Positions 3,123 through 28,867 are shown, counted from the whole stretch's first letter. The stretch is 61,461 nucleotides of DNA, filler included, from 13 parts of 13 records of this genome joined end to end with filler, not necessarily neighbours in it; one strand, 5' to 3'. A program made the numbers and translations. The notes: a model not told the origin generated them from the letters alone.

Positions 3123-3222
3123 NNNNNNNNNNNNNNNNNNNNNNNNNNNNNNNNNNNNNNNNNNNNTTAATTAATTAANNNNNNNNNNNNNNNNNNNNNN
3201 NNNNNNNNNNNNNNNNNNNNNN
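3123..3222. other. Artificial contig-joining linker (N44-TTAATTAATTAA-N44), first of 12
   Basis: Identical 100-nt blocks with a 12-mer giving stops in all six frames. Blocks start at 3123, 6423, 9867, 15898, 25258, 30739, 34252, 37922, 41364, 45461, 49827 and 53565. Confidence 0.98.
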
Positions 3223-5192: not shown

Positions 5193-6400
5193 CTATTGCT
5201 CTGCGCTGATCAAAGCCTTTGGGATCATCAGTGCGGCCAAGCCTCGCCGGCAGCAGCCCATTGGTTCGATCTGCTGCCACATGTGCGCTTGCCTGTTGAA
5301 ACGCTCGGCGGAGCTCAGGATCCGGATTGTGTGGTCGGCGTCGGCCCCGCCCACCACGCAGTCCATCCCGCCGGCCACGACGATCTGGCCGAGCTCAGTG
5401 ACTGCGGCCGCGCAGCCCTGCCGCCTCTCGCACATGTCCGCGATCCGGCTCCACCCTGCCCCGGCCGACGGGTCGAGCACCTCGCACGAGTCGAGCGCCT
5501 TGACCCCGTCCGACCCGCCGAGCACCACCAGCAGCCCGTCGACTGCTACACAGGCCGCGTCCTGCCTTGGCTCACTCATCGGGGGAAGCGGGCTCCATTC
5601 GTCCGTCTCTGGACTGTACACCTCGCCGCTGGCAGTCGGCAGACGGTCCTGGCCGGCCCCGCCCAGCACTGGCCCCCGAGTCGGCCGGCTGCCCCGGGCC
5701 GGCTCACCGTACAGCTTGCCAGCCATCACGCAGCAGCAGCAGCCTTGCCGCGCACGGCTCATGTTGTTGGCCCGCCGCCACTGGTTGGTCGCCAGGTCGT
5801 ACCACTCGAGCGTGCTCAGCGGGCCGCTCAGCCCGTCGCCCCCGCCTGCCCCCGGCCGTCCCCGCCGCCGCCCCCCGCCCGCACCGGCCACGTAGAGCCG
5901 GTCGCCGATCACCCCGCACCCTGCGCCGGCCCGGCAGTCCTACCCGGCGGTCCAGCCCGCCCGGCCGGCCCGGCACCTGCATGTCGGCCGTCCAGTCCCA
6001 GTTGGCCTCGCGCGACCGGTTGAGCAACGGCGACCGGCCGCGCGCTTCGGGCAGCGAGTCGGCGGACCCGGCCGCCTGCGTGCGCGCCTGCCGTCCGGTC
6101 GGGCCCCGGGCGGGGCGGGAGGCCACCTCGACCGACTTGAGCGATATCCCGCCGTTAGCCCCGCCGGCCAGCACCAGCTGGCTCCGGCCGGCCGGGAGCG
6201 GGAGCAGGCCGGCGGAAGCGGCGCGCCGGGCCGATTGGAGCTCGGGCCCAGGCCGCCAGAGCCCGGTGGACGGGTCGAGCCACTCGACCGAATCGAGCTC
6301 CTGCGCGCCAGTCAGCCCGGCGGGACGGGCTCGGCGCCTGCCGCAGCTGGTCCTCGCCCCCGAGAACGCAAAGGACTTGGTCAGACTGCTCATCAGCCAT
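5193..6400 (-). CDS. Kelch-repeat protein (spliced)
   Basis: Repeated Kelch units (LVVLGGSDG...CEVLDP...W, LYVAG...LEWYDLATNQW, EVYSPETDEWSPLPPMSEPR). ATG at 6400. First intron 6301-6337 is GC-AG. Confidence 0.85.
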
Positions 6401-6630
6401 TTTTCAACGGCAGCACGATTTTNNNNNNNNNNNNNNNNNNNNNNNNNNNNNNNNNNNNNNNNNNNNTTAATTAATTAANNNNNNNNNNNNNNNNNNNNNN
6501 NNNNNNNNNNNNNNNNNNNNNNTCTTCCGCCAAGTTTTCAACGCGTAGGTACCGTAGATCTACGACATGCTCGCGCCTGCATGCAAAGCCCCAGCTGCGG
6601 AACTGAACAACAACCACCCGGTGCAAGGCG

Positions 6631-9605
6631 ATGGATGCCAGTGAGGAAGCGGTGGCGCGGGACCGGGAGTTCGCTGAGCAGTGGCGGGAGGAGCACGTGG
6701 CCGCCAGACTCCAGCTCGAGCAGCCGCGACTCGGGGTGCGGGCCAGCGTGGTGCGCCGGCAGCCGGGCTCGGCCTTCTCGCACCGGCGCCGGCCGAGCAT
6801 GGAGAGCACGGTGGAGCAGATGATGCCCTCCCGGCCGCGAGTGCCCAGGCTCGAGCTCATGAGAGCCAAGGTCGATTCGCTACTGGCCGGCGCCCCGCCG
6901 GAGCCCACCGAGCCTTCAGAGCAGCCCAGCTGGGACGCCCGGCTCTCGCCGGGCTGCCGGCAGTGGATGCGACGGTCCGGCAACGCCACGCTGGAGCTGC
7001 GGCCAGGGCAGGCTGACTCGGCCCGGGCCTGCCGGGGGCTGGGCGAGACCGTGGAGCGGGCGCTGGGGCTGCTGGCACTGCCGGAGCAAGCAGTGCGAGA
7101 GCTGCAGCAACGGACCGCGGCGCTGGAGGCGGTAGAGCAGGCGCAGGGCAAGGGCGACTCGTGGATCCAGGCCGGGGCCGGGCTCTGCCGCACACTAATG
7201 GCCTGGATATCTTTCCACGCCTTCTGCGAGCATCCGCCCTCTGCCGCCGGAATGCTCCGCCGTTCTCGGCTCCGTATACACAGGCAGCAAAGCCCACTAG
7301 CCGGGCTGACGGGGGGCAGCCTGGAGAACTCGTCATGGAACCTGGAGCACCCGGAATCGGAGCCGCTCTGGAGTGGGCCACTGCTGGCGGCTCAGGCAAG
7401 GCTGCGGGCCGAACTTGCGGAGGCGCTCTTGCCATACCCGATCCCTGCCGGGCAAGCCAACCAGTTTGGAGGGCTTTCCGAGCAGCTGCGGGGGGTGCGC
7501 CCGACGGGGAGCGCATGGCTGAGCGGCGCGGGCAGGTGGCGCGGACCGGGGAGCACACGGTGCGGGTGAGCACCAAGACTCAAGCAGTCGAGATGGTGGA
7601 CCGCCTCGGGCGGCTGGGGAGGGAAGCGATAGAGCAGCACGTGCAGCTGCTGGCCGAGCAGCTGGTCAGGGACTGGCGGCCGCCGGACGGGGTCGACCAG
7701 TGCAACCAGGCCATCCACGCCGTGCTGATCGCCGAGCGTGAAGACATTACGCGTAGCATAGGGCCGTACGCGAATGAGTTGTTTGGTGGCTTATTTGAGC
7801 TCAAAGCGCCGGCTGCTTGCCAGCCACCCAAGCTGGAGCTCGCGGTCGGCGAGCCCCAGGCAAAGCCGGCCAGCTCCGGCCGATGGGCTCGACTGCAGTG
7901 CCTCGCCCGCTCACGCACGATCGACCTCCGTGCAGTGCAGCAGCAGATCCAAGCCGATGGGTTCGGAGCGCTTGAGTCCGGTGAGCTCATAGCAGCGCTC
8001 GGGCTGAGCCTGTGGCAGCGGCCCGGGAGGCTGTGGAGGCCCTGGAGGCTGCGACGGTCCGGCAGTGCTGTGTGTGGCAAGCGAGCGCCCAGGCCGGGCT
8101 ACGGGAGGCTCAGCAGCTGACGGCCGCTGTGAGCGGCCTTTGCTTGCCGGCGCTCACCCATCGCAACTTTGAGGAGACTGGCTGGAAGCCGAGTGAGGAG
8201 GGCGTGTTTGACGGGTCAGGCGGGCAGCAGATCCGTGAGCACCTCGAGCTCGCCGGGCTGCAGGCAGCCGTGCAGCAGCAGCTCAGCTGGTTTGAGAGCT
8301 GGGAGCTACCTGCTGGCCCACTGGTGGAGATGCCGGCCACTCCCAACATGCAGCTAGTGGAGGTGGGCAGCGCTGGCCCAGAGCAGTCAGACATGGGCGC
8401 AATGGTCCCTCTATCCGGGCTAGCGGCGCTCGGATCGCTCGAGAAAGGCGCGATGGCTTCGCTGGCTAAAGGCAGCCGGCTAGGGGCGGTCAGGCGCTGA
8501 AATGCTGGCAGGTAAACGGCTCGAGTTGAGCCTACAGCCCGGCTGGCTGTCCCCGGACCACTTGGCCACGCAGCACGAACAGGTGGACCGAACCCAATCA
8601 AAGGTGGGCGCCCGCGCGGAAAGGATTGTCAAGGTGGCCAACTTTGCCGGCGCTGCAGCTCAGGCCACGATCAATCCAATGGCAGTGTTCTTCCAGGCAC
8701 TGACTGGGATCGAGTGTTGAACTAAGTGCGGGTCAGGTGTTTTCGATTGCGACCAGCCAGTATTACATGCACGAGATCAACGAGCAATTGGATAAAATCG
8801 ACAAATCGCTCAGCAGACAAGAGCTCCGGCAGGCGTGCGCCGCCGTGGGCACCCTGCAGGCCTGCGCCGTCCTCACGCAGGAGCTCAAACACGAATTCAG
8901 CGCGCTGTCGGAGCTGCCGGCCGACTGGCCCACACGGTGTAATCAGGTGCTTAGGGACACCACGCACGGCCTGTGCATCGCAGAGGCGGGTGTAGCTGTC
9001 TTCCTGTCCCGAATAGAGGCGTTTGTTGAGACGGCGGATCCTAAAGATCGGCTTAGGAAGCTCCGAGATATTCACGCAGAGATGCAAACCGCACAGCAAG
9101 AGCTCACCTGCTTGCTTGGTTACTCCAAGGCGACCAGCCGTGAGCTCTGTCTCTCTGATTCTGCGCGACCGTGCAGGTGTTGTTGCAGCTTCGTGAGCTG
9201 CAAGCGCTTGCTGACTTGCGTCTGGGCTCGGAGGTATGCTGATGGCTGGCTGGTGGGCTGAGCAGGGTGCAGCGGCTCTCGATCTCAATCATGAGGGTGG
9301 ACGACGCTCTACTTGGGATTTGCCAACGATTTGAGCTGTTTGGGCAGCTTGAGAAGCTGGTGAGAGTAGCAGAAGACGACGTTGCCGAGTTGAGCTGGCT
9401 TCAACGGAACGTGATGAACCGTTCAGCCGGAGTCTATGCGGAACAGGTGGCCAGTAGCATCAATGAGCTCCAGCGGAGCTTGAACGGAAAGGGAGAGTGG
9501 GCGCACCTCAAGTTTGTCTTGTCGCTCAATGACAGTGGCGATCAAGTGCAAGTTAGGGCCATAGCTGATGACGCCGAGGAGGCTCCATTACGGCTTACAT
9601 GGTAG
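6631..9605 (+). CDS. Hypothetical alpha-helical protein (spliced)
   Basis: ORFs 6631, 7161, 8012, 8502, 8737 and 9267 join in frame via introns 7495-7535, 7981-8018, 8472-8511 (GC), 8697-8736 (GC), 9130-9176 (GC) and 9234-9272. No family recognised. Confidence 0.6.
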
Positions 9606-9979
9606 CTTACTTATAAGATTACTCGTACAGTACAATAAAGTAAGCCCGGACATTTAATCGCGTAAAGTCTAGCGTGAAGGCCTCACACACGTTACCCGGG
9701 AGCTCAGATCTGAACGAGCCGGCGGAGCCGGGCAGGGCGATTTGATATTCGGACCTGCAGCTTAATACTTGCAGCTGGTATTGAACTAGGGATTGTTGAC
9801 CAAGGCACTCTCAGCTCACCTGCGGGCAGCCCCGAATCCGTGAGAATGCCACGGACCGCGCACACCNNNNNNNNNNNNNNNNNNNNNNNNNNNNNNNNNN
9901 NNNNNNNNNNTTAATTAATTAANNNNNNNNNNNNNNNNNNNNNNNNNNNNNNNNNNNNNNNNNNNNTCGCGCTCGTAAA

Positions 9980-11779: not shown

Positions 11780-12089
11780 CTGATGCCATTGAGATGGCAC
11801 TGCAATCGTCAATCGTCACTGACAAGTCTTGCCAATTACTTGCCTACTACTTGCAAATTTAACAACTCCGCTCAGATAACTTTCAGCATCATTGTAATTA
11901 CATTGTAATTATCACGTAAACAAATTAGTAAAAAATGCTGCAGATTTATCATAAAATATTGATTCAGAACGGTGGCTGATTCTATCCGATCTAGACTGAA
12001 GGCTTCTCGCTAGTAAAGCTTGCCGGTCAAAGCGGAGCTTTTAAGCGGAGCGCAGAACTCTAGATTCACTAGAATGCTTCTATAGATTG

Positions 12090-15000
12090 CTAGAGCGAGT
12101 GTGGATGGTCTGCGAGCTCCTCGTCTTGTGCACTCTCGTCCCAGCTAGTCTCGTACGTGATAGTCCCGATTTTATGCCGTGGTAGCATGTGTGACGGATC
12201 CGAATAGTGTTCCGAACGGATCAAGTCCATGCTGTGTATCTCGGGTGGCCGGTTGTTGAAGTCCACTTGCATGGTCGCCCTACACACTGCACAAGACTAA
12301 ACCACGGACCCAAATCAAGAGCTTGCCTTCGATGGTGCGTATGCCAGGAACCTCGTGGTACACGATCAGGTTGACCTCCACTTGACGGATCTGAGTCAGC
12401 CGAAACTTCATGGGCTTTCTGCCCATCCTAAAAGTGTGCACTCTCTCGCTGAGCACAGTAAAGTCGCCCGATCCAGTGTGGCTGCACAAAAACCCGTCTT
12501 GAGCGCACACCCAGTCGCCCGCAACTAACCTGGAGTGGGATGTGGAAGTGGCCGAGTCTGTGCGAGACACCAGCTTCTTGATCACGCGCCCGGTGTGCGG
12601 GTTGCTGATTTCCTGCTTGATCTCCACCTGACAGAAGATGTGGTCCCGGAACAGAGGCAAAGTGCTGATCGATGTCAATGTTATACTCGGCACGTTGATT
12701 GTCAGCTCCGCATTGGACTGCTCTATACTCTCTGCTGCCATCTCGAAGTCAAAGTCATCTTCCGGTCCACTGACATGTAAAGGTCAAAATCTCTCACATC
12801 TCAACAGGGGAGTGGGTGACTGTAGGCACTAAAAGCTCTCAGGCGGAGCTACCTTCGCTTATCGCCCGTGCCTTGCAGGGTTGTATGGAACTCGGACTTG
12901 ATCATGTCGAGGTAGCTGTCGTCCAAGTGCCGCTCTTGTCGAATGAAGGTTCGATCGTCCAGAGAAGCATAAAGCTCTACATAAGCCTGCCCAGACCAGT
13001 GACCAGGCAGCATCTGGTGGCTGGCTCACCTGATGCCTCTCGCCCTGGTATCGGTCAGCTTCAGAGTCTTTCGCGTCAGATAAGACCACCTGTACAGGGA
13101 GCGTTCAGCTGATTGTTCGAAACTATGGCAGATAGCCAGGTAGCATATGCATCAGAGTCACCCTGTTCTCTATCGAATGGGCCGCACGGAGAACCTCGCA
13201 CTGGCTGGCACGCAGCACCGACATCTCGGCCTTCATCCGGCTGTGCATCGACTTGATGTTCCTGTATGTTTCCTGCCCCGCCAAGTAGCGTCAGACAGTA
13301 GCTAGACCGGTCCGCACATTCAGCATCTGGTACTCCGACATCTCATAGAGGGTGATGCCCTCGGAAGGCTGCATCTGATCCAGCCATGTTGTCAGGCTCA
13401 CCCAGGCCTCTGTCGCCAGCTTGCTGATCAGAACTTCGCTCCTCTTCTTGGCGACACTGTTAGCATTGGCGTTCACCACTGAAAGGCCCATGACTTGTTC
13501 GATCAAATGCCGGAAGTCGGAACGTGACAGAGTGACCTCCGAGTATGCATCCGACTTTTTGGTCTCTGCCTCGCAGTTGGTGATCATCTGGGTTATCACT
13601 GGAGCGCTAAAAGCAAGGATGGCTCCGAGCTGCAGACTCACAAGTTACAGTCGGCCAAGACCAGTTTCAGACCTCAGGAGGGTCCGGGGTGTAGACGCCG
13701 GTCAACGCATAGAAGAAAATGTCCTTCATGTACACGCAAAATCTCCCACACATCGCGCCCGCCCCTAGCTTCTGAATGGCTCCTTCCCCTAACGACTTGA
13801 CATAAGCGGCCTCCTCCTTGATCAACTCCTGAAGAGTTCCCCTGCAAGGCAGACACTCAGCATCCGAGTCCAGGTCGATTCACACCCGCGATCCTTTGGC
13901 CGCGTCTTCCGGCGAACGTCAAAAAGCGAGTTTGCAATCACACCAATGAACATGTTCATCAGGATCAATGTCATGATCATCAGGAACGAGTAAAAGTAAA
14001 TTGGGCCCATGTACTTGTTCAGAAATTGGAGCTCCTGCACTTTAACGTGCCCAAACAGCATACCAACTTGGACTCCCATTGTCTTACCAAAGGTGCAGAA
14101 ATTCTCAGCCTCCGAGCCTGCAACAAATCAAGGCTGCTGGGCCCCAGCCAGAGTCCACACCGAAAACGATGTGCGCAGCTACAGCAAATGCAATGAACAC
14201 AGAGAAGAAGAGCACCATAAAAGCCATCAGATCTCCAAACTGACCCAATCAAGCTCAATGTATCGAGCAAGCCCAGAGCTCACCGCGCCAGCAATCGAAG
14301 CACACATAAGGGTGAGTTTCTTGGAGTAATACAAGAACCGAGCAAACTTGAAGAGCGAGAGAAAAGCCGTCACCCCGTAGGTATAAAGTGCCACCCTGCA
14401 GGCAGGCTCATGAGTATCATCGGGGCTTAGCGACCTGGATGCGTAAGCTGTGTCCCCCAGTGAGACTATGTTGCCCATTGACGCATCGGGCTGAGTATCC
14501 TGGCTATCGGCGCTCATGATAAATAATGCGCTGGTGACAAGCGTAATATACCAGCTTAACAAGAACAGATACTCGTACCAGCCCCAATACGCTTGCTCTG
14601 CCATCACTCCTTTAAATACAGTCCAAGCGTCATCGCAAAAGCCCATCTTATGCACGTCCTTGCCGTTCAACCTCAGTCGGAGATGTGAGAGCCTGCTCTG
14701 CCATTGGACATACTTGACCACCTCGCGAGCTTGTCGGATCGAATAAAAGTAAACTCCAAACACAACCACAAACCAGACAAACAGCCGAAAAGACCAGTCT
14801 GAATTATCAGACGGCTTGACAGTGAAGCTGGTAACCCGGTAGGTCGGGTAGATGGCCCCGCTCGGGGAGAACTCAACCATGATAGTCCCGTACATATACT
14901 TGTCATAGCCAGGGTTGTACAGGTTAACAGCAATGATCACCACCCGAGTGGCGTCGTCCACCCAGGTGCCAGTGCCTCCGGCATTTTGGAGAGTGGCGGC

Positions 15001-15720
15001 TACAGTGCTCCAGGTGGTGGTTGCGTCCAGCGTGAAGAACACCGGATACCCACCATTCCTATATTCTTGAATGTTTGCATTCTGGAGTGGCAGCACGCCG
15101 TACAATGTGTGTGATCCTGTGTCCGAGTGGTAGATATACGTCGAGACCACCCCCGTGGAGCTCGTAATGCTGAAGGCGCTTTCACTCTCGGAATTTTCAG
15201 TAAGCAGCCCGTAGCAGTTGACGGTGCTGTCGTTGTCGCTACAATCGGTATTCGGCTTCACTCGTTGTTGTCGCATCATCACCGAGCCCTGGACGATATT
15301 GTACTTGTGGACCTTGCAAACCGAGCCGGTGCAGTCGGCCCCGAGGTTGGCCAGGAACGGATTGGAGAGCCAGGCCCAGAAGTCGGCCACATTTTGTATT
15401 TGCTTAAATCTCTGGCACGGGTACTGAGTCGAGCCGAACGGCGGGCTGATGAAGGCTTCGGAGAACATGTTCTGCAGGTCCCAGTCGGCCGGGATGTTGG
15501 AGAAGTAGAACACGGCCAGCAGCACGAACACCATGAACAGCGAGTACCCCAGGCAGTCCTCGCGGGTCTGGAGGATCTTCTGTTCCTCCTTCACGTGCTT
15601 CAGCCACCGCTTGGCGTCGGCAGCACCGACCTCGTCCCCCGGCAAGTGGCTCTGGCCAGCCGTGCCCCGACGGAGCCGAGAGAGCGGCACCGTGGCCGAG
15701 GCCGGCGGCACGTACGACAT
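12090..15720 (-). CDS. Polycystin-2 (PKD2/TRPP)-like cation channel with long C-terminal extension (spliced)
   Basis: TOP-domain motifs (F..I.NVADFWAWL, MMRQQRVK, WVDDATRVVII..NLYNP, VEFSPSGAI), TM helices, and S6 GPIYFYSFLMIMTLILMNMFIGVI. Short introns join the ORFs down to the stop at 12090. The C-terminal exons are less certain. Confidence 0.8.
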
Positions 15721-15997
15721 TAGACGTAAAACACGGCCACCCCCCCACCCCGGTCCTGCCTGCGGGTCCAAGTCCGCTGGGATCCGTTGGGGAGTGACAC
15801 TATGGGCGAGATGAGGAAGGCAGGAGGCCCCTGAAAAATGTTATGGTTCATATGGGTCCGCACTATACGGCTGTAGGTGCCCGAAGCCCCGGAAACTNNN
15901 NNNNNNNNNNNNNNNNNNNNNNNNNNNNNNNNNNNNNNNNNTTAATTAATTAANNNNNNNNNNNNNNNNNNNNNNNNNNNNNNNNNNNNNNNNNNNN

Positions 15998-18900
15998 ACT
16001 GCAGAGGCCCCCGAGTCGATCCCGCAGCCCCAGACTGGCAGGCAGCCCCGGCGGGCAGCGAGAAAGATTCAAAGCTATGCCGATGCCGACGATGACGACG
16101 ATGAGGACGATGCCGTCAATGAAGACGACGAGGACGACGAGTTCTCAGACATGAGTGACTCCGAGGAGGAAGAAGAGGACGACGAAGAGCTGTCCGAGGC
16201 CTCGGATGAAGACTTGCCCGAGCAGACCGACGAGGAGAGCGAGGACTCCTCGGTAGATGGCGGGAAGAAGCGCAAGAAGCCAGCGAAAGAGGCAGCCAAG
16301 AGCAAGCCGCCCCCGAGGAAGCCACCGCCCAAGAAATCAAAGCACAAGCCCACGCGTAAGCCGGCAAGCAAACCGCGCGCAAAGAAGCCGGAGACTGACG
16401 CGGCCGGGAGTGGGAGGCCGCAGGGAATGAAGGCGGTGTACCAGGAGGGCCTGGACCTGCCGATTATTGCCCATCCGCAGTTGATGTTTGATGACATGAT
16501 CAGCAAGGTGCGCCGGCGCGGCTTGCGGTCCTGAGCCAGGACTAGGTGCCCGAATTGGGAGCGTTTGCTCAAGCCCTGGCTGCACACGGCAAGCAGGGCA
16601 GCCTGCGGGCAAGTGCGCGGCGCGGGGCCGGTCTCATGCGGGGCTGCAGGTGGCCACAATGTGCTCCGGCACTGAATCGCCGCTGCTTGCGCTGCACATG
16701 ATTTGCCAGTCGTGCCAGGATCTGCACGGAGTAGCCCCTGTGATCGAGCACGTTTTTAGCTGCGAAATTGAGCCGTTCAAGCAAGCATACATCGAGCGCA
16801 ACTTTGCCCCGCCGATCCTGTTCAGGGACATCCGTGAGCTCGGGAACAAGTACGCTACCACTGCTTATGGCAGGTTGGTGGAAGTGCCTGGTGGGATCGA
16901 TATTCTGGTGGCCGGGACCAGCTGTGTAGACTACTCCAACCTGAATAACGAGAAGAAGACTATTGACGGCAAAGGCGAGTCCGGGCAGACATTCCGCGGG
17001 ATGATGCAATGGGTGAAGCAGTACCAGCCTCCGATTGTGATCCTCGAGAATGTGTCGGGCGCCCCGTGGGACAAGAAGGTTGAGATCTTTGAGACTGAGC
17101 TGGGCTACCACGCCGACTTTATTCGGCTGGACACCAAGCACTACTACATCCCACAGACCCGGCAGCGCGGCTACCTGCTCGCAGTGCGGCAGGACCGTTG
17201 CAAGCCAGAAGTGGTAGCCAATTGGAAACAGAGGCTGGTGGAGCTCCGCCGGCCCTGTTCTGCCGCGCTCGATGCCTTCATGTTTGCGAATCACGATGTC
17301 CGCGTGCTCAAGGGCCGGGAGCGCTTGTCGGCCGAAGATGGTGAGAGCGGATCTGGCAGAGTGGACTGGGGCAAGTGCGAGAGTCGACATCTGTTTGCTC
17401 GGTCGAGTGAGCATCTGGGCGACAAGCGGCCGCTGACCGGCTGGTCGGACGCGGGCAACACCACGATGCCGGACTGGGCGTGGAACGACTGGGTTAACTC
17501 TCAGGCGAGTCATTCATCCGAGAGTTTTGACTGACGGCTCGATGTTGCAGGTGCATAGGATCCACGATTTGATGGACATTAACATGCTGCGGCTGGCCAA
17601 AGACGGCGTTGACGGCACCTACAAGACAATGGTCTGTCGCGTCGGCTGCCGGTGGTAGATTTGGCTGTGCAGGTGTGGAACCTGAGTCAGAATGTCGACC
17701 GGGACACGATGGGCAAGCTCGGGCTGTGCATGTGTCTGACTCCCACCGGAGTGCCATATGTGGCCAACAGGGGCGGGCCGCTGGTGGGCGAGGAGCTGCT
17801 GCTGTTGCAAGGGATTCCAGCAGACGATCTGCTGCTCACAAGAGAAACTGAGAAGCAGCTCAAAGATCTAGCAGGCAACGCGATGAGCACCACAGTGGTT
17901 GGGGCGGCTCTGCTCTGTGCTCTGATTGAAGCTGGGCACGAGGCACTCAGGCCACAGAAACCTTCCAGCAAAGCGGCCGCACAGGTTGGGGCACAGGCCG
18001 GGGCCAACATGGACCTGGTTCCTCGAGCGCTGGCACCCGATCCTGGCGAGATCCAGGTGGACACCAGCCAAGCCAAATCAACCACCGATCTAGATCTGAA
18101 AGCCGATCTGCGTACCCCACTGAAAGAGCTTCTTCGGAAAGCCAACATGTCAGCATGCCGTTGTGTGACTGAAGGGCGGTACGACCTCTCAGAAGACCTG
18201 CTGGAGTGTGTGGACTGTGGGCACACGTGCAGCCAAGACCAAGCATTCCCTCCCCGCAAGTTTGAGGAGCACAACTACCAGCCATTCAGTCAGCCCAGGC
18301 TGCTTCCCAAGGAGTTTGAGCTCTTGCTGCAGAGAGTCCTGCCAATGCGTGTGGAGCTGTCCAACTTCAATCCCCGGACACAGATCAAAACAAGTCCGGG
18401 GATGGACAGTGAGCTGTGGGAGAGCTGGCTGACTGCACTTGAATCGGTGCTGTCTCACGACGGCAAGCCTACGGTCTGGCAGTATGCTGGGCAGGAGCGT
18501 GGTACCGTCTGGACAGTGCTCTACGATGCCCCTGGGGGCAGCTTGAGGTTGCTGCTGGACCAGGCTGCCCCGCGCTGGCAGCTGAGCGTGGACCCGCCAC
18601 CAGAGCGAGGAGCGCTGAGGAGAGCATTGGAGAGGTCTGTGGCCGAGATGAAATTGGACCCAAAGAAACCTCTGCTGGCTGGTGATTGGTTGGTGCGACT
18701 GCCAGAGGCCAAGGAGTTGCAGATGACTGTAACTGGTGGGGGAGATCTAGTGGAAAGCTGGGAAGCCAGGATTGGGCTCAAAGGGAAGTTTGATGGGAGC
18801 AAACGTTGGTCTGAGCTCCAAGTGAGTTGCCCCGAGATGCCAGATGTAGATGGCACCTATTCCCTGCTCCAAAAGTGTGGTGGGGCATTGGGATCGCTAC

Positions 18901-21900
18901 ACGCTCGCAAAAAAAGTTCAGACACACGCCAACCAATGTTCTTGCTCATCGAGAGTGGCCGTTGCTCTGGCGCAGATGATGATGGCTACGTGTTTGCAAC
19001 AAGCTGCCAGAGAATTGGGTACAGGGAGAGTAGAGATGAGATGCTGTCTGCAGATCCATCTTGGAGACCGCTGCCTGAGAGCGACCCACAGACTGTGCAG
19101 TGCACCTCGCATGCCAACTGGCAAAAGACTCCTGCAAAACTCCTCAACGTGGAGAATCAAAAGGCATCTGTGAGCACTCCTGATCAGCGCATTGAGCTCG
19201 ACATGACTGGCTCGGAGAGCTGGAAGTCAGCTCCAGCAGTTCTCAATTGCAAAGTTCCTCTATTGCGTGCTGATTCCAAGCTCTGGGGCGAATGCACTTC
19301 GACAAAGGCAGAGAATTGGTTGAAATTGAATCTGCACAAGTCCAAAGCTGTCTTTCAGCAGCTTTCGTGGTTTACTAGTCGGCTGGCTCTCCCTTCCTCG
19401 CTGCAAGATTGGTCCATCATCGAAAAGGGCGATGACAGCATTGCCATCAGCTGCGAGCGCTGTGCGCCTCAAATGCCATCAGTGGTTTGGAAGGTCGTCA
19501 CTGTCAAAGGTAAGGAGAAGTATGTACCTGTGGAAGATGCACATGAGGCAGCTCGTTTCGAGCATGCTTTGAAGCAGCGACCAGGGGCATTCACGGTGCA
19601 GCTTCGTGCTCTTGAATCGAAATCCAAGTCAGAAAGTTCAATCAATGGCGAGCTGCGAGTTGTGTGCAACGCAGTCAGTTTGGTCCATCGTGCAAACAGC
19701 TGCCTCAGTAAGATGAGTGTGGCCAGAGCAGCCTTTGGAATGTCCAAAGCAAGCAAGGATGAGCAGATTGTGTTCGACTGGCGCATTGTTGAGCATGACG
19801 ACATGACTCGCATGCCTGTGTTCGAGCCTCTTGTGCTGGTCAGCAACAAAAAGGACAAGCCAGCTAAACAGCCTCCCAACTTTTCCCGTTTCAAACTGCG
19901 ACCTGAGCAGTTGAGGAGTCTGCACTGGATGTTGCAGCAGGAATCAAGCACCACTGCCTTTCCAGAGGAGGAAGTTGCAGAAGAGGTGTTGCCTTCCTTG
20001 CAATGGCGAGCCGAGGCCAGGGTGCGGCGCCCAGTGCTCGTTCGGGGTGGAATCATTGCTGACCAAGTGGGCTACGGCAAAACAGCCATAACTCTCGGAC
20101 TGATAGATGCCTCAAGGGGGAAAGAGATTGAATTTGATGTTCCAGAGCAGTACGCCAGATCCAGTATTCCAACTAAAGCGACCCTGGTGGTAGTACCGCA
20201 ACATCTGATGGGTCAGTGGCCGTCTGAAATCGAGAAATTCTTGGACGATTCTCTTGAAGTGGTGGCTCTCAAGACAATGCAAGACTTCAACAATCTAACT
20301 GTGCAACAAGTGGTCGACGCCGATGTAGTCATTGCAAACTTCACGGTAACAATGCCGTGGCCATGCTGGGTCTGAATTTATTTTGCAGGTGCTCCAATCC
20401 GAGTTATATCTTGAGCGCCTGGCAAGACTGGGTGGGGCAAACGGCGGAGCATTCCCTGCAGGCAAGACAGGGGGTCGACATTTCAATGCAGTATATGCTG
20501 CCTGTCTGGACGGGCTAGCTGATCTCCTCGAGATTCTGAAGGCCAAGAGTGGTGGGGCAAAGCAGGCACGTAGCGAGATGGACAATAGGATCAAACAGCA
20601 CAAAGAAGACGAGCAGGAAGCTAGGATAAGTGGTCTAGCCATTCGCTTAGATGGCAAGAAGAGCGTGTACAAAAGCGTTGAGGAAGAGATGGCACAGGAG
20701 GAGCGCCGGCCCAAGCTGGAAGGCAAGGCTCCAAAAAAACAGTCCAAAGGCAAAGCAAAGACAGATGATCCTTGGGGTCTTGGTAGCAAAGGTGTTGAAA
20801 AGGACTGGCACGCCATGAAGTGCCCTCCCCTCGAGGCGTTCTTCTGGTCGCGCCTAGTGGTGGACGAGTTCCACTACCTGAATGACAAAGCAGACCGGGC
20901 TCGAGTGCTTTCAGTTGTGTCGAAAGGCTTGAAAGCCAGCTGCCGATGGGCTCTATCAGGGACCACGCCCCATCAGGACTTCGAGGACGTCGCTTATCTC
21001 GCTCAGCTTCTAGGTGTTCACCTCGGTGTAGATGACCCAAGTAACTCAAAGAGCAATGCCCGCAAGGTTCTGCCACGATACACGCTGCCCATGAATTGTT
21101 GTTGTGTTTTAGGTTGCGGCAGAGAACAGGGAAAAGACAGCCTTGGAGTTGTTCAGCAATATGCTCACAATGCACTCGCCGCAGTGGCACTTGCGGCGTC
21201 ACGAGATGGCACAGACTTTCTTGCATCAGTTTGTCCGACAGAACGTGGCCGAGATCGATGAGATCCCGTGGGAGGAGCACATAGAGAAGATTGTGCTGCC
21301 TCCTGCTGAGCGCGCAATCTACCTCGAAATGGAGACGCACCTTCGAGCTCTCGAGATGAACAAGAAAATGGCCATGAAAAGCAAGAAGGCCAGCACTAGC
21401 GATCGCGAGGCTCGTATCAGAGAGGTGTGCTCTAGTTGCAAACAAGGTGTGAGATCTGTTTTGAAGGTACTTGAAGACTCTGCTGATCCGGAGGAAGCTC
21501 TACTGAAGCGTTGTGCGCACTTTGACTTGTCGTCTGATTCCAATGATAGTGCCCTGGAGGTGATTTTTAAACTCAGGTTTGGACTGATGCTTTTCTTTTA
21601 GGTGTGCCTGAAGATTATCAAGCTGCGGGAAAGACAGAAGCAGCAATGTGTTGCAGATCTGGAGACTCAGATCTGTTCAGCATTCCAGCAACATGCTAGA
21701 ATCCTTAATACTGATCCGGACTGGACTGGTCACAGCGATATTGGCGATGTGGAGGACCGGCTGGCTGTCTATATCACAGATGTGGAAAACCAACAGAGCG
21801 TCAACGGGGGAGCGGATACAGAGGTGCATGGAACTATACTTGAGATTTTCAATAAAGCAAAGAAACGAGCTGAAAAAGAAGGACCTAAGGGAGGAGATTC

Positions 21901-22851
21901 AGATGAGGATGATGAGGACGACGAAGAGCCGCCAAGGAAGAAGAAGAAGAAGGGCGTGAAGAAGCAGCGTATTCTGGATGAAGAGGAACTGCATGCTGCA
22001 AAGTGGGCGCTTCGCGAGCATATGCACGGGGTGCGGGCCATCGGCAAGGAGCTCACAGCACGCACCAGATCCCTGCGCTATTTTCAATGGGTGCGTGATT
22101 TCCAGAGCAGCTCTTGTGAGCCTACGTGCGTCCGCTGTGGCACGGCGTACCCACAGGAAGAGGTCGGGGTCCTGTCATGCTGCGGGCATGTCGGTCGGCT
22201 CGCCTGTTTGAAGCAGATGGCCGATCGCGAGGAGTGTGTTGACCCTGGTTGCTCAGCTCCAGTCAAGCCTGAACATATTGTAGCTGCGACTGCTCTTGGG
22301 AGTGACAACGAACAACAGAAGGGCAGTGAATACGGGACCAAACTGGCAACGATCATTTCCAAAGTCAAAGAACTTGTAGCCCAGGAAGACCGAGTTCTAA
22401 TCTTTGTTCAGTTCAGCGATCTCAAGGAGAAGGTCGCAGCAGCGCTTGAGTGCAATGGGGTGCGCACACTGCAGGTAAGGCCTGCAAATCATCAGGTATG
22501 CTGACAGGTAATTTGTGGCAGGTGCGCGGTTCCCTGCACACACAGGTGAAGGCATTGACAGCCATGCAGAATGAAACACTCAAGGAAGACGACCCAAGGG
22601 TGTTGCTCCTCACAATGGACGACGAATCTTCGTCAGGCGTGAATCTGACCACTGCAAACCACGCAATATTTGTGCATCCTCTCCTTGCCGAGACGAAACA
22701 ACAATACGATGCTTACGAGACTCAGGCTATTGGCCGCATCCGACGGTATGGACAAACAAAGACTTGTCATATTTGGAGATACATCTGCCCATCCACAATT
22801 GATACTGAGATATTCAAGCTGCGAACAGGTAGAGATATCGAGACAGAGTAG
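15998..22851 (+). CDS. DNMT5: DNMT5-type C5 cytosine methyltransferase with SNF2 ATPase and RING finger (5' truncated, 9 introns)
   Basis: MTase motifs LRVATMCSGTESP, AGTSCVDYS, ILENV, IPQTRQRGY, DLAGNAMST. SNF2 motifs ADQVGYGKT, VVVPQHLMGQW, VVDEFHY, LSGT, QAIGRIRRYGQ. RING CVRC...CCGH...C...CVDPGC. Introns 16508-16545, 16609-16649, 17505-17550, 17632-17672, 20346-20388, 21067-21112, 21425-21466, 21560-21601, 22475-22521. Confidence 0.92.
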
Positions 22852-23075
22852 CCGAAAAATATGTACGTACATACGTAGCTTGAAAGGCTTGGGCCGTGAT
22901 GACAAGACTGCTAGTCCATGCCTAGTTTATATACAATTTAGTACAATCATGTACGTGTACAGTACCTACTTTTGTACATAGTTTGGTCGCATTCCAAGCA
23001 GCTGCCCCGGCCGCAGGCTGACTGGCAGGAAAGAGTTGAGATGGAAATAATAATATCGACGGTAAGCATTAATCA

Positions 23076-25257
23076 ATGGCAAAATCGAGGCCGTGTTGGC
23101 CGATTGTGCCGCAGCTCCTGGCACTGCTCGTGCTGGCGACGGATGCCCAGGAGCCAGCGCAGTTGGACGGGCTTCGGAGCATCAGGGACGCCGCTTTGGC
23201 TGACACGAGCCGGCAAGCCGCCGCGTTGCGTGACGCCAGGGTCGGTCTACGGCGCAACAACCAGGCCCACCGTGCTGCAGCCCGCGAGCTCCGCGATGCC
23301 GAGGCCGAGCGGGACAAAGCAAGCGCGGCGCTTGCCAAAGCCGAGGCTGAGGCGCCTCAGATCCAGCATCGTCTGCGCGAGGCGTCCGAGCAGCTATCCA
23401 ACTCGGCCGCGAGCCTCAGCCAGGCCAAAAAGGCGGCCGCACATGCGGATGGGGTCCGGGATGAGGCTCGCCAGCGGGTGGAACATGCCGAGAGTCGGGT
23501 TTCTGAGACGGAGACGGCACTGGCTGTGGCAATGGCCGAGCTCAAGGAGAAAAACAAGGGGATTGACGCCGGGAGGGCCGGGCTGAGAGAGGCGAGGAGC
23601 CAGCTCAAGGAATTGCGCGCGGCGGCAGGGATGGCCACCGGAGATCTCGACCACGCGGCGAGCAAGCAAGCGGCGGCAGAAGCGGCGGAGGCCAAGACGC
23701 GAGTTGCGCTGGAGGCGCAGGTGGTGGCACTTAGGCGAGCTCGCGTGACTGAGGCCGACTTGGAGAACGCATTGCAGGCAGGCGAGCTTAGCCTGGAAGA
23801 GCTCAAAAAACGGGCCGATGACGCCAGCATGGTGCAAGAGGCAATGGGCCGTCAACTCAAGGAGAGCCTGGCGAGATTCCAAGAAGCGAGCCTGCTTGCC
23901 ACTGATAAGGCCGCACAGACCAAGAAGGCCAAGGACATCTTAGACAAGCTCCAGCGTGGGGTGGACGCGGCGGCGACCGGCCGGAGCACCGCTACCAAGC
24001 TGGTCGAGGAAGCAGATGGGCAATTGTCCGTTCTCAGGAAACTGATAGGGAAGGTCTCATCTCTCAAGCAGGACCGTGAGATCTCCAAACGGTGACGGCC
24101 GGGCGCAGGCTGGCTGACTGGACCGGCAGGGAGAAGCAGTTTGTGGACAAGGAGAGTGCTCTGGCCCACCAGAGTGCGGCCAGCGCCTCCGACCGTGTGA
24201 GCAAGGTAAAGCGCGAGAAGGTGCTCGATCAGGCGGATGTGCACCGCCTCAAACTGCAAGCCGCCAAAGACGCGGATGGCTTGGCCGAGATGCAAAGGGT
24301 GCGCCCGCTGGCCGGTGCGAATCTTACTGCGGTGCAGCGGCTGAGCCTAACGACTTCCAAGCTGCGACGGGCCCAGAAGCACCAGAGCAAGTGCCGGGCA
24401 AATCGGCAGCAAGCCGAGCAACAGATGGCAGTCAAAGCGCGGGCCCACATTCCGGCCGGGACCAAGATCGAACGAGCCCAGGAGATACTTGAGAACTCGA
24501 AGAGCCGGCTCAAGATGGCTCACATGCAGCTGGATCGGGCGCTGCATTCCGAGCATTCGGCCATGAGCAAGACAAAGCTTGCCCAGCAGGCTCGTGATGA
24601 GCTGGCCGGGCGTGTGGACCAGCTGCAGACGAAGCTCAGCCAGCACCGGGAGCAGCTAGAGGCAGCCAAACTAAGGCTAGCTGGGCTGCAGCCGGTCGAG
24701 GATAGCGGGGCCAAGAGGTCGGAGCACGCTGCTGAGGCCAGAGCCAATCGGGCCGAGCACGTGTACGAGACTGTGAGCGAACAGCTGGAGCGGGCCGAGG
24801 AAGACATCAGGACTACGGAGAGCAAGCTGCAGGGGCTGCAGACTGAGCGGCGGAAACTGGCAGTCCAGATGCAGGTCAGTCAGCTCAGGGTGGCAGCCTG
24901 ATCGGCGGTGCAGGCGCAGCTGAATAAATTGCAACCGGCTCGAATGTACGCGCCAACGGGGGAAAAGAATGAGCCGGACCAGGTAACCAAGCTTGGCAGG
25001 CTCCCGGCCGATCATGGGAGGGTGTAGGCTCCAGGGATTTCAGCTACGCAAGCGCAACACATGGAAGCGATGGTAGATAAGATGGAAACTACCGCCGCAG
25101 CCAATAAGCGGAAGGAGAAGAGGAAGAAGGCGAAGCGGAAGCTGGACAAGAAGTCGAAGGGAGCGCTGAAGAAGAAGATGGAGAGAAAGCTGAACACGCT
25201 GAAGGAGAAGATGAAGAAGGCGAAGCGGAAGCTGAAGAAAGGGCTGAAGAGAAAGCT
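23076..25257 (+). CDS. Secreted long coiled-coil protein with Lys-rich tail (3' truncated, spliced)
   Basis: Signal peptide (VPQLLALLVLATDA) and Ala/Glu/Arg heptad-rich sequence. Intron 24092-24129 and two more near 24875-25030 join ORFs 23076, 24092 and 25061. Runs into the gap. Confidence 0.65.
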
Positions 25258-25357
25258 NNNNNNNNNNNNNNNNNNNNNNNNNNNNNNNNNNNNNNNNNNN
25301 NTTAATTAATTAANNNNNNNNNNNNNNNNNNNNNNNNNNNNNNNNNNNNNNNNNNNN

Positions 25358-26604
25358 TCTCCTCTGCCGACATGGCTGCCACTTTTTCTGCCTCTCTTTT
25401 CGTTTTATTTGCCTCTGCCTGTGCCTTTTCGGCCGCTCGATGCCTCAGGACGCCTCCAAAAGCGGGATGCAGTAATGTCCGGTGAGCTGTAGTGACCTTG
25501 TCCGACTTGAGTGTGTTACCTGCAGTGTGGCTGTTGGGAGATGCACCTTCAAGATCTTGAAGGTCAGGCTCCTCGATCCCCCACCGAAAAAAAGGTCGGT
25601 TCGGATCTAATTGCAGTCCGAGTCCTTCGGAGTCCGTCTCTAAAAGGTCGCCGTATTGCCAAAAGCCAAACCCCAAGATTAACAAGAGCGACCCGAATAA
25701 TAATAAGTTCTGCCGGGAGGAGGAGACTCTGCGCCGCTCATCCTGGAGTTGCTCTTTCTGCCGGAGCTCCCCCCCTTTCACGTTCAGCAATACGTTAGCC
25801 GCACTGGCGTTTAACTCAACCAGCTCACGCGACATTCTGCAGGGCCCATATACTCATGCCGCTCCTTATGCAACAGGAGACCTGAGGTTGCCGTGGTCGA
25901 GGTCACTATACAGCGTTCCATCGGAGAAAATCTCTGCACGAGACCGATTAATTACTGACTGTTACAACCAGTGGCACCGGGGTCAGGGTCCAGGTACTTC
26001 ATCGACGCTGCTTTGAGCAGTGTCTTTTGTAACGCATTCGCCGCTTCAAACAGCACGTGACGTCCACTGCACCAGCGTCAGCACCGCACCAGGCTAGGCA
26101 TCTGCCACCATCCGCACCGCACCATCTGCGAGAACTCGTGGTATTTCAACCTGTCCAGGCACCGGCTCAGGCCCAGCAGGGCACCGGGCGCGCACTTGGC
26201 CTCGAAGTAGAACCCGCGCAGGCAGCCCGGTGCTAGATCCTGTGCCCTGGAGGCGTCCTGTTGCATCTTCGTACGAAGCTCTTTGAGGCGTTCGTCTCGG
26301 ACAGCTTTGTGGCCCTGCACAGACATCCTTTCGTACAGCGCCGCTCGGATCATGTAGTTGACTGCGTCGTCCGGACAAATCTGAATCGCCACCGCCATCG
26401 TCTCGAAAGCCTGTACCGGGGCTCACGTCCCGATGGCGTGGCGCAGAGCCGGACCTCGGTGGTGTCACCCCTTTTGAACGAGTTGACGGCCTCGAGCCGG
26501 TATGAAGATGCAAGCTTCTCATCCATCGCCTCTGGCAATGCCTCCGCCAATGCCTGCTCCTCAGCTTCGCGTCTGTTCCCAACAGAAGATACGACAACGG
26601 ACAT
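25358..26604 (-). CDS. TPR-like protein with a transmembrane helix (spliced, 3' truncated)
   Basis: TPR-like segments (AIQICPDDAVNYMIRAALY, AQDLAPGCLRGFYFEAK). Short introns link these to ORF 25835, which has the TM stretch LLLFGSLLLILGFGFW. Confidence 0.5.
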
Positions 26605-27168
26605 GACATTAATAATACGACAACATCGGTGCACCTCGCCGGAGGCACGAGGAGGTGGGCTTCTGGTACTGCGGGTTCTTGTTGGCTCGCGGCATGCTGC
26701 TTATCTTGCAACAGCGCTCCAGGTTGAATCGTACTGAATTCCGGTGGTTGCGCGAACGTCGGCCGAAGTGCTGTTGTGTGCTATTGTGGCTCGCCTAATC
26801 CTTGGCGCGCTTTGCGTATTTGGCCCAACAATTGCTCTCGATCTCCGGATTATTGCTAGTATGTGACTACATGTATAATAATTATGTACGAGTCCATTAT
26901 GTACGGTTCCATCACTCATCACTCATCGTGAACACATCACGTGCACTCATAATTATAAGATATCGATGTCTGGATTAAATGAATTGTGGAGGGAAAACGT
27001 GTCACAATGTCAAGGAGGTTAATTAAAGGAATGTGCTTTATATTCTCCATATATTCTTTGAGGCAATCTTGTACCAGATGAATTTGAAGCCGAGCATTTA
27101 GATGGCAATCGTGTGTATGCCACCAGCACCGCCATGCATCATCGCATCATCCCATGCCGCACGAGGCC

Positions 27169-28773
27169 TTATTCTGTGGCGTTCGCCCCTTTCGATGAAA
27201 GTTTGCCTAACTTCTCGTTAATTGCGCTTAGCCTCTCCTCGAGTTGGTTCAGATACCCCGCACTCTCGCCATCCGGGTCATTGCCTGCTGCCAGCTCTGC
27301 CCGCGCAGTTGCTATTTCGTCCTCCGTCTCGCGCTTCATTTTGTCTAGCTTGGCCTTCTTCTTCATCTTCTTCTTCATATACTGCACTAGACACCGCTTG
27401 AAGTGTTCGTCCTCTGCTACGTCCCCCCTCTTCTTGGCCTCTTCGGTCGCCCCAGCCACCGAACTCGGCACCGCCATCAGTTCCCTACGATTGTCGGCCA
27501 CTCCCCTATCCGGCGCATTCAGCCAGCTCGCCAGCTGCAGGGACTCCATCTGCTCGAGCCGTTGCTGCACCACCGCTCAGCTAGGCGCCCCGGCTGGCCT
27601 GCCTTCATTTTGGCGCTAATCTTCTCAGCATCAAGATCCACTTGACCCAACACACTCCCGCCACACACGTACAGCCCTGTATCGAGCATCCCCAGATCTA
27701 CCGGCCCATCAACCCCCGCGCTCCCGGCCAGGCCCACCCTCGGACGCAGGGTTGCTGCTGAGCTCCTCCCCAATCGCCTCAAGCAGTGGTTTCATAGGGC
27801 TGTGGTACCTGCAGCAGCGGCTCAGCCGGCGGTTCAGGCCGAGCCTGGCGGCCTGAGCTGCTCCCTGTCCACAAACTCTTGGGCAATGCTCTTGGACATG
27901 TTTTTGCCGTGCTGCAGATGTATGCACAGGCCGTCATCGTCGGTGCTCAGGCATATCTCATTCCCGTGGTGCCTACACGCCCTCAGCCAGGCTCACACTC
28001 GCACGCACACCTGAGCAACATTAAAAAGCCCTGGTCCTCGGCCCACGAAACGTGCGGGTACTTGACTTTCTCCATTAGCGCCGTGTAGTGCAGGAGAGAG
28101 AACCCGTAGCTATAGAGCATAGTCTTGCGCTTCTGCTCAGCTGGCGGAGGGAGCGGCTGGGTAAGGTCTGTATGAGCGCACACGCCCAGCTGGGTATCGT
28201 ATGTGAACCAGGAGGCCAGCTGCCACCCACTCAGCCGGCTGGGCGGGGCTGTCCGGCGCCTTGATCACTTGACAGTTGGCCTGGTGCATACGATCTACCA
28301 TCACTGCCAGATAGGACGGCGCATACCTGCCCACACCGTCAGCCCGCCGCCCGCCCTTCGGGCGCACATGTCGTCGTCGTCAAACGACGCCAGAATCTCC
28401 CCGCGAGCCATTTCCCCGCCCTGCCCAGCGCTCGGTCCGGTGGCCCCGGCCGGCGCACCATGTTGCGCTTCTCGCCGATCGAGACGGCATTCTCTGGGCC
28501 TTGGATGTGCGTGTAGCGGACGCGCGGGTCGTCCAGCCCGGCGAAGAAGGGCGAGGCGGTGGGGCCGGTGTCGATTACGATCAGCTCCTTGCTCGGATAG
28601 TCCTGCATATCGAACGAGGTATACAGCCGGCTGTGGTAGACGTGGCGGGCCCCGATCGTGGGCGAGACCACGGTCACCATCGGCCGGGCTGTCTGAGGCA
28701 CCGCTGCGTCGGCTGGCCGGGTGGCCTCGAGCCGGTCCAACTGAGAATGGATGTGCGCGATCGCTGGATCCAT
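27169..28773 (-). CDS. Glycosyltransferase family 2 (GT-A fold) protein with coiled-coil C-terminus (spliced)
   Basis: Motifs PMVTVVSPT, QDYPSKELIVID, SIGEKRN, ILASFDDDD(M)YAPSYL and WAED. GC-AG introns at 28220-28259 and 27809-27852. The C-terminal junctions are less certain. Confidence 0.8.
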
Positions 28774-28867
28774 GTCGGCCGGAATAACGGACTTTTGCAG
28801 GTTGGTGAGGTGTTGCCCTCTGCCCCTCTCAGCACCAGCAAGGGCTTCCACGGCTTCCGCCCAGGAA

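Follow-up and report, generated by a model that had tools for sequence, protein, structure and literature searches.

GC-AG introns, which begin with GC and end with AG, make up 1.3% of the 2.46 million introns counted in PMC3033335. The same older census gives shares of 39.6% for Aureococcus and 22.2% for M. pusilla, calls this abundance an enigma, and reports a putative U1 5' end of consensus sequence. For Emiliania huxleyi, PMC4028052 puts the share at 56% among 241 curated junctions and at 61-65% in further sets, and for Aureococcus and Pelagomonas a share of about 14-17%, with introns of 103-177 bp, is found in bioRxiv 10.1101/2024.10.30.620910. Here we describe short introns with a similar preference in a window of 61,461 bases, the whole stretch of DNA that was analysed, in which an earlier note had listed eight GC-AG introns, citing Emiliania and Aureococcus as precedents; the published figures bear out both precedents and add M. 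pusilla (PMC4028052, PMC3033335). Our analysis confirms the GC-AG observation and extends it to 11 introns that have at least some support, strong in six cases. The window contains introns of about 41 nucleotides (nt), about 30% of them GC-AG, with donors that show only a weak consensus on the intron side. They are very probably ordinary U2-type introns of a marine eukaryote rich in guanine and cytosine (GC-rich), whose ends would be recognised through intron definition by standard small nuclear RNAs (snRNAs).

Each candidate junction was examined by scoring every possible spliced peptide against homologues, with the start, the end and the end dinucleotides all left free, and by comparing the boundaries of the top peptides. 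The eight segments listed earlier, checked on the sequence, have the hexamers, AG ends, preceding exonic G and lengths of 37-47 nt that had been described:

6301-6337, minus strand: claimed intron 1, GCGCCG, 37 nt, the first intron in a Kelch-repeat gene; junction ranked 11th of 1951 when scored on that gene's own repeats
8472-8511, plus strand: claimed intron 2, GCAGCC, 40 nt, in a long gene that belongs to no known family; frame restored
8697-8736, plus strand: claimed intron 3, GCACTG, 40 nt, in the same long gene; best GT-AG or GC-AG (GY-AG) boundary against a related metagenome locus, L001
9130-9176, plus strand: claimed intron 4, GCGACC, 47 nt, in the same long gene; best GY-AG boundary against L001
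16609-16649, plus strand: claimed intron 5, GCAAGT, 41 nt, in a DNMT5-like gene
17505-17550, plus strand: claimed intron 6, GCGAGT, 46 nt, in the DNMT5-like gene; best-scoring of 2046 junction peptides against six homologues, score 988
27809-27852, minus strand: claimed intron 7, GCCGCC, 44 nt, in a family-2 glycosyltransferase gene; rank 31 of 957, score 78, best GT-AG 73
28220-28259, minus strand: claimed intron 8, GCGCCG, 40 nt, in the glycosyltransferase gene; rank 1 of 1051 against a reference protein, P0121

Splicing any of the eight segments joins two open frames, as had been stated, and in seven of the eight cases the unspliced frame runs into a stop codon there or shortly afterwards. 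In the case of 16609-16649, the frame used downstream remains open upstream of the segment, and at 28220-28259 the upstream frame continues for about 40 codons before its stop. Frame restoration is weak evidence, because the DNA is poor in stops and many other boundaries also keep the frames open: such alternatives number in the hundreds, and GT..AG rivals lie near several of the claimed sites. Counting the frame-bridging candidates by donor dinucleotide gave no discrimination, since GG, GC and CT each yielded hundreds. We relied on homology instead, and by this measure three of the eight (16609-16649, 17505-17550 and 28220-28259) appear strongly supported as GC-AG introns and four (6301-6337, 8697-8736, 9130-9176 and 27809-27852) moderately so.

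Two of the claimed introns interrupt the DNMT5-like gene, which is collinear with homologues of 1870-1904 amino acids and whose five other introns are all GT-AG, of 38-47 nt:

16064-22734, plus strand: DNMT5-like gene, C5 cytosine methylase domain, then an SNF2 ATPase, seven short introns
16508-16545, plus strand: GT-AG intron, 38 nt; top junction peptide against homologues
17632-17672, plus strand: GT-AG intron, GTCTGT, 41 nt; top junction peptide against homologues
20346-20388, plus strand: GT-AG intron, 43 nt; top junction peptide against homologues
21067-21112, plus strand: GT-AG intron, GTTCTG, 46 nt; in a variable stretch, placed by eye and by the gene finder described below
22475-22521, plus strand: GT-AG intron, 47 nt; best GT-AG, scoring 477 against a top of 481

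The segment 17505-17550 is the sole canonical boundary that yields the top peptide, and the best GT-AG alternative, only 16 nt long, scores 879. For 16609-16649, a model that pairs it with the GT-AG intron 16508-16545 reaches 1487; with a single intron the best score is 1350 if any kind is allowed and 1294 if it must be GT-AG, and none of the GT-AG options joins the small exon to the methylase exon. Its removal recreates the motif LRVATMCSG, held by eight of the 11 homologues listed (the other three are without it). A DNA contig from another sample (X1 record 2, 16593-16826) spans the segment with four other letters; among the rows of other letters listed, none marks a difference at 16609-16649.

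In the glycosyltransferase gene the reference was P0121, a transcript-derived EukProt protein collinear with the spliced model. Besides the two claimed introns, this gene holds a further GC-AG intron and four GT-AG introns, ranked against P0121:

27565-27602, minus strand: further GC-AG intron, GCAGGC, 38 nt, absent from the earlier list
27698-27737, minus strand: GT-AG intron, 40 nt; rank 51 of 893
27973-28010, minus strand: GT-AG intron, 38 nt; rank 4 of 787
28327-28367, minus strand: GT-AG intron, 41 nt; rank 1 of 1043
28421-28458, minus strand: GT-AG intron, 38 nt; rank 3 of 935, tied at the top score

The segment 28220-28259 is the sole canonical boundary for its peptide, with a score of 69 against 57 for the best GT-AG, while 27565-27602 takes rank 1 of 748 with a score of 91 (a tie with a non-canonical boundary) and its best GT-AG alternative reaches 50. 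P0121 is collinear with the spliced form at both segments.

An EF-hand-containing conserved gene provides two more GC-AG introns. For this gene 41 homologues were found; 14 of them entered the alignment with the model, and scoring used the 12 longer than 250 amino acids:

45938-47578, minus strand: EF-hand-containing conserved gene, six introns
47160-47200, minus strand: GT-AG intron, 41 nt; rank 1 of 1126
47033-47070, minus strand: further GC-AG intron, GCGCGG, 38 nt; rank 1 of 1009, score 1115, best GT-AG 914
46868-46909, minus strand: GT-AG intron, 42 nt; rank 1 of 776
46654-46692, minus strand: GT-AG intron, 39 nt; rank 1 of 790
46514-46551, minus strand: further GC-AG intron, GCACGC, 38 nt; rank 2 of 1137
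46294-46335, minus strand: GT-AG intron as adopted, 42 nt, the last intron; rank 19 of 789

At 46514-46551 the GC-AG boundary scores 589, against 590 for a non-canonical boundary and 468 for the best GT-AG, and the 12 homologues are collinear with the spliced form at this segment and at 47033-47070. Taken together, there are six sites where the GC-AG junction peptide ranks first or second, or where no other GT-AG or GC-AG boundary joins the exons, with GT-AG far behind. In the DNMT5-like, glycosyltransferase and EF-hand genes, where all junctions were tested, GC-AG introns account for 7 of 20 (95% interval 15-59%), against the 1-2% typical of eukaryotes.

The evidence for the remaining claimed introns comes from more distant comparisons. 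Three of them lie in the long gene of no known family (6625-9581, plus strand). In the locus L001 (1-2005) the homologous region is a single uninterrupted frame that lacks the three introns; L001 is the only related metagenome locus for this gene, at 31% identity and 54% GC. At 9130-9176, the best six listed of 1758 peptides all remove 47 nt and only this boundary among them is GY-AG; it scores 52 against a top of 56, with the best GT-AG at 35. At 8697-8736 the score is 105 against a top of 111 (2194 peptides), and the best GT-AG, only 28 nt long, reaches 95. The segment 8472-8511 is a probable GC-AG intron whose sole basis is its signal scores: a signal model trained on GT introns gives it -2.5, against -7.5 for a frame-keeping GT-AG rival of 37 nt at 8489-8525. 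In the Kelch-repeat gene, where the gene's own repeats served as reference, 6301-6337 scores 317 against a top of 335 and a best GT-AG of 264, and its splicing joins the exon carrying ...LGG... to the ...SVEW.DP... part of a Kelch blade. Tandem acceptors, CAG and GAG, stand 3 nt apart at 6298-6303 on the minus strand and fit the repeat pattern equally (317 and 319). The same gene has a probable GT-AG intron of 39 nt at 5669-5707 on the minus strand (GTGAGC...GGCCAG), in frame and without stops; its removal gives the ...KLYVLGG... start of a Kelch blade, and left unremoved it contributes 13 extra residues to the gene-finder model.

Across the whole window, introns were predicted with our own Viterbi gene finder, which takes codon log-odds from Pfam-supported frames and donor, acceptor, branch and length terms from its own calls. 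A first training was discarded for over-calling (432 introns at penalty 4). The final version predicts 74 introns, 54 GT and 20 GC, and recovers every intron supported by RNA or homology together with all eight claimed ones; restricted to GT, it leaves the long gene in three pieces and the DNMT5-like gene in two. We also ran the finder without any donor term, so that 67 loci were placed from acceptor, branch and coding frames alone. Fifteen of these have no frame-fitting GT at 30-60 nt, and AG|GC stands at a fitting position in seven of the 15 against 1.02 expected (Poisson tail 9e-5), or seven against 0.41 when the range is restricted to 36-47 nt. AG|GC is the most enriched, at these GT-less loci, of all the 4-mers found in predicted coding sequence.

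The predicted introns are short and uniform. Seventy of the 74 measure 36-47 nt, with a median of 41, and under a flat length prior of 25-250 nt 48 of 66 still fall at 35-47 nt, several of the long calls being fusions of two short introns and the small exon that separates them; the tight length of about 40 nt that had been described is therefore upheld. Introns occur at about 1.5 per kilobase (kb) of predicted coding sequence and are 65% GC overall (GT introns 63.7%, GC introns 70.4%). The description of the GT donors as degenerate also holds: information at +3 to +6 amounts to 0.72, 0.20, 0.61 and 0.06 bits in the 54 GT donors (a sum of about 1.6) and to 0.63, 0.28, 0.54 and 0.26 bits in the 20 GC donors, and GTCTGT and GTTCTG, listed above, are among the GT hexamers. 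At +3, GT donors have G in 37 of 54 cases and A in 10; C stands at +4 in 25, and G or C at +5 in 49 (G in 30); the commonest hexamer, GTGCGC, occurs five times in 54. Exon-end G at -1 is nearly fixed (49/54 GT and 20/20 GC donors), and GC donors carry A at -2 in 15 of 20 and a purine at +3 in 18 of 20. Only two of the six best-supported GC donors (GCAAGT and GCGAGT) have a GCAAGT-like remainder, the others being GCGCCG, GCAGGC, GCGCGG and GCACGC. In the fully tested genes, exon-end AG accompanies six of seven GC introns and five of 13 GT introns (Fisher p = 0.07), a hint of exon-side compensation for GC donors.

On the acceptor side the common form is GCAG|G, with G at -4 in 40/54 GT and 17/20 GC introns, C at -3 in 44/54 and 19/20, and G at exon position +1 in 38/54 and 16/20; no pyrimidine tract was seen at the acceptors of the predicted set. 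Between 8 and 24 nt from the 3' end, 33 of 54 GT and 13 of 20 GC introns carry a branch-like YTNAB, at distances that peak at 11-15 nt, and exact CTGAN is present in 24 and 11, respectively. The CTGA-type motif is mostly found 11-15 nt from the 3' end. The earlier note had suggested that introns are recognised mainly by exonic flanks and a length rule. The weak +3 to +6 positions, the nearly fixed exon-end G and the tight length agree with this proposal; it overlooked the branch motif and the GCAG|G acceptor, and because that motif lies 10-15 nt before the acceptor, recognition does not depend on flanks and length alone.

At the RNA level, contigs of sequencing runs, including a metatranscriptome (X2), were compared with one N-free piece of the window (15998-25257). 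Three introns are skipped in RNA contigs:

24092-24129, plus strand: GT-AG intron, GTGACG, 38 nt; X2 record 11, only one of the three placements possible in the repeat giving GT..AG
24875-24913, plus strand: GT-AG intron, GTCAGT, 39 nt; X2 record 12, boundary resolved
24983-25027, plus strand: GT-AG intron, GTAACC, 45 nt; X2 record 12, boundary resolved

Very short introns with odd GT donors are seen directly in these transcripts. Within the same piece, the stretch 15998-16306 is acidic and of low complexity, with a weak YL1-like match (28.5 bits, under the Pfam cut-off of 29.2) and very deep cover of 42-1034 (contig depth summed over four runs). Long 'skips' from this stretch to 21900-25200 were rejected as spurious; they probably reflect similar repeats of other organisms.

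These features could be accommodated by a spliceosome of the usual kind. The signals comprise exons ending in (A)G, a donor with G at +1, T or C at +2 and a purine at +3 but little more on its intron side, and a CTGA-type branch 10-15 nt before GCAG|G. In introns this short the two ends would be paired across the intron, which amounts to intron definition. The gap from donor to branch is only about 25-30 nt, and the donor would be specified jointly by this constant spacing, by the module of branch and acceptor and by the (A)G at the exon end. Spacing, module and exon-end AG would then offset poor pairing with U1, and C would be tolerated at +2 under GC pressure. The snRNAs would presumably be standard, as in other GC-rich algae with many GC-AG introns; a scan of the window at Rfam gathering thresholds gave no hits at all, snRNA genes included.

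Several observations weigh against ordinary U2-type introns with abundant GC donors. The X2 depth is zero over 16307-17542, where the two GC-AG introns of the piece compared (16609-16649 and 17505-17550) lie, and no RNA contig covers any GC-AG intron in that piece, so the support for GC donors is protein-level or statistical. For removal from the mRNA there is good indirect support at four segments (28220-28259, 27565-27602, 47033-47070 and 46514-46551), from the collinearity of P0121 and of the 12 EF-hand homologues with the spliced form. At some sites the boundary can be drawn differently. For 6301-6337 it is not fixed, the acceptor being possibly 6301 or 6298; 8472-8511 has the plausible GT-AG rival already mentioned, and similarity to L001 fades there. 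P0121 is collinear across 27809-27852 with a one-residue gap nearby, and other GC-AG boundaries fit too, meaning that a GC donor is likely while its exact position is not fixed. In the EF-hand gene a 48-nt GC-AG segment, 46294-46341, shares the acceptor of the adopted GT-AG intron 46294-46335 and outscores it (418 against 400); judged on this alignment it may be one more GC-AG intron, and the counts could therefore shift by one. The proportion of 20 in 74 and the sequence logos come from a gene finder trained on the same window, so the flank preferences of the predicted set are partly circular. Decoy donors also drew calls: 26 for CC, 24 for CG and 18 for TG when retrained, and 10, 12 and 4 with fixed GT-trained signals. 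The gains in parse score were noisy, GC gaining 77 against at most 24 for the decoys when retrained, and 38.1 against 38.6 for CC with fixed signals. The decoy control is confounded, because decoys often landed on the same loci (with fixed signals, five of the 10 CC calls use the acceptor of a GC call), and it was therefore replaced by the donor-free locus test. Finally, introns that are in frame and free of stops, such as 5669-5707, escape the finder; only 15 of the 74 predicted introns have lengths divisible by three, and this class is likely under-counted.

Among the alternatives, it seems rather unlikely that 5' splice-site choice has become near-minimal, with an (A)G exon end, G at +1 and a purine at +3 being read, near-indifference to C or T at +2, and the donor set by a distance of about 25-30 nt, measured like a ruler from the branch and acceptor module. 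U1 pairing would then be minor, and parts of the small nuclear ribonucleoproteins (U1-C, Prp8, U5 loop I or the U6 ACAGAGA box) might be changed. If it were true, the puzzle of abundant GC-AG introns would become testable in a very simple set of introns.

We consider it improbable that the RNAs themselves, U1, U5 or U6, are changed, so that 5' sites are picked by exon flanks and a length ruler in place of U1 pairing at +3 to +6, as the earlier note had suggested. The low information on the intron side of the donor (about 1.6-1.7 bits over +3 to +6) and the tight intron size are what such a change would lead one to expect, and the presence of only two GCAAGT-like donors among the best-supported six points the same way. 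Against it, the GC-AG-rich Aureococcus and M. pusilla have the putative U1 5' end of consensus sequence cited above, and G or A stands at +3 in 47 of 54 GT and 18 of 20 GC donors, with G at +5 in 30 of 54 GT donors. Because these bases stay frequent, partial pairing with U1 may still take place.

That the GC donors are artefacts, with true ends at GT or elsewhere, or with the C at +2 being an assembly error or a minor allele of T, appears very improbable. Frame restoration alone would permit many boundaries, GT-AG rivals such as 8489-8525 do exist, the GC sites are without RNA cover, and the assembly is a fragmented metagenome bin. Nevertheless, GC-AG is the best or second-best of 748-2046 junction peptides at five sites and the sole GT-AG or GC-AG boundary joining the exons at the sixth; GT-AG alternatives score far lower at those five and are missing at 16609-16649, where the contig from another sample shows no difference among the rows listed, and AG|GC is enriched about sevenfold at loci without a usable GT. 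Least probable of all is that these uniform introns are copies of a recently spread mobile 'introner' element, for although they are similar in size and share recurring words (GTGCGCCCG and GGCTGAC-type strings; 181 pairs sharing 8-mers against 101 shuffled, 23 against 7.9 for 10-mers), those words are the splice signals themselves, only one of 2701 intron pairs has a 12-mer in common (shuffled mean 0.66), and no string shared by a pair exceeds 12 nt.

Other intron classes could be set aside. U12-type introns, with a donor [AG]TATCC and a TCCTTAAC-like branch site in the description of PMC3033335, are not represented, as no ATATCC or GTATCC occurs among the 74 predicted donors. The non-canonical introns of Amoebophrya are those without any fixed end dinucleotides, and a pelagophyte origin was rejected on the length (103-177 bp) and sparseness of pelagophyte introns. 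For U2-type GC-AG introns, the eight claimed and three further segments have the GC start and AG end, and the CTRAY-like branch-site motif is present, without a general near-consensus, GCAAGT-like remainder of the donor.

The remaining predicted GC-AG introns come from the gene finder:

5921-5960, minus strand: predicted GC-AG intron
12287-12326, minus strand: predicted GC-AG intron
39680-39742, minus strand: predicted GC-AG intron, of an odd 63 nt
40447-40483, minus strand: predicted GC-AG intron
40776-40815, minus strand: predicted GC-AG intron
43082-43122, minus strand: predicted GC-AG intron
50299-50339, minus strand: predicted GC-AG intron
50475-50510, minus strand: predicted GC-AG intron

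A further call at 28818-28860 has a very low score and is probably false. The exon 39464-39679 of the PKD-channel gene, which has three predicted GC-AG introns, found no match in a search for homologous proteins.

The source of the window is an intron-rich, GC-rich marine eukaryote, uncultured and known only from metagenomes. The window consists of 13 separate contigs of 3.1-9.3 kb each, and linkage between neighbouring genes on different pieces is therefore not established. The contigs meet at 12 linkers, each made of 44 N, TTAATTAATTAA and 44 N (for example 3123-3222 and 6423-6522, plus ten more). GC content is 51-67% in 2-kb windows, and long open frames carry eukaryotic Pfam domains (Kelch, C5 DNA methylase followed by SNF2, polycystin, BK channel, RCC1/UBA/HECT and bZIP). 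Parts of the largest contig are present in marine and aquatic metagenome runs and in one marine metatranscriptome. For the methylase exon, the best matches with a name come from two ochrophyte algae (61-63% identity), which is too weak for assignment to a taxon, and metagenome proteins reach 70%.

There are practical consequences for gene prediction. In this organism, a gene caller limited to GT-AG would break about one junction in three, and in-frame introns of 39 nt would be silently translated, so that truncated or frame-shifted proteins would enter catalogues of eukaryotic metagenome bins. This organism adds a lineage in which abundant GC donors occur together with very short, tightly sized introns and a weak donor on the intron side. 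A comparison with Emiliania, Aureococcus and Micromonas could separate GC pressure on +2 from the need for other signals.

Compared with the systems described so far, the window resembles E. huxleyi, Aureococcus and M. pusilla CCMP1545 in its GC-rich genome, the large share of U2-type introns that start with GC, and the AG acceptor. The GC-AG proportions of 7/20 tested and 20/74 predicted, in DNA of 51-67% GC, fit this pattern of GC-rich protists. Pelagophytes differ in having 0.1-0.9 introns per gene with averages of 103-177 bp (bioRxiv 10.1101/2024.10.30.620910), whereas introns in the window are of 36-47 nt and dense. In the Mamiellophyceae, the canonical introns of Ostreococcus and Micromonas have a donor AG|GTGCGT(G) and a branch (N/GA)CTGAC(G), and are described as few and marked by strong signals, with a 5' site of 4.8 bits in O. 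lucimarinus and a branch 20-35 or 43-52 nt from the acceptor (PMC2483917, PMC3879977). The window shares with them GTGCGC as its commonest GT hexamer and a frequent CTGA-type branch, but its introns are dense, hold about 1.6 bits over +3 to +6, and place the branch 10-15 nt from the acceptor; no Mamiellophyceae protein is among the 120 DNMT5 matches listed.

The BOC1 of Mamiellales has many introns of 40-65 bp per gene, with a weak splice-site consensus, which are AT-rich (<43% GC), without a discernible branch motif and mostly GT-AG (PMC3491373, PMC3879977). The window is similar in its many small introns and weak consensus, but different in its 65% GC, its branch motif and its GC-AG share of about 30%. 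Under the definition of BOC1 introns in PMC3879977 (<75 nt, <43% GC and no branch motif), the length fits, and the GC content of 63.7-70.4% together with the branch motif rules the class out. A narrow literature search found no paper describing GC-rich introns of about 41 nt with about 30% GC-AG, and we do not claim that they are unpublished. The GC-AG introns of animals and plants have near-consensus, GCAAGT-like donors on the intron side. Those of the window are like them in the GC start, the AG end and the strengthening of other positions (exon-end AG, 6/7 against 5/13), but they are unlike them in their share, about 30% against about 1%, and in that most donors are degenerate on the intron side. 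Abundant GC-AG introns in GC-rich marine protists are thus already known, and what is new here is their pairing with a tight size of about 41 nt and weak donors.

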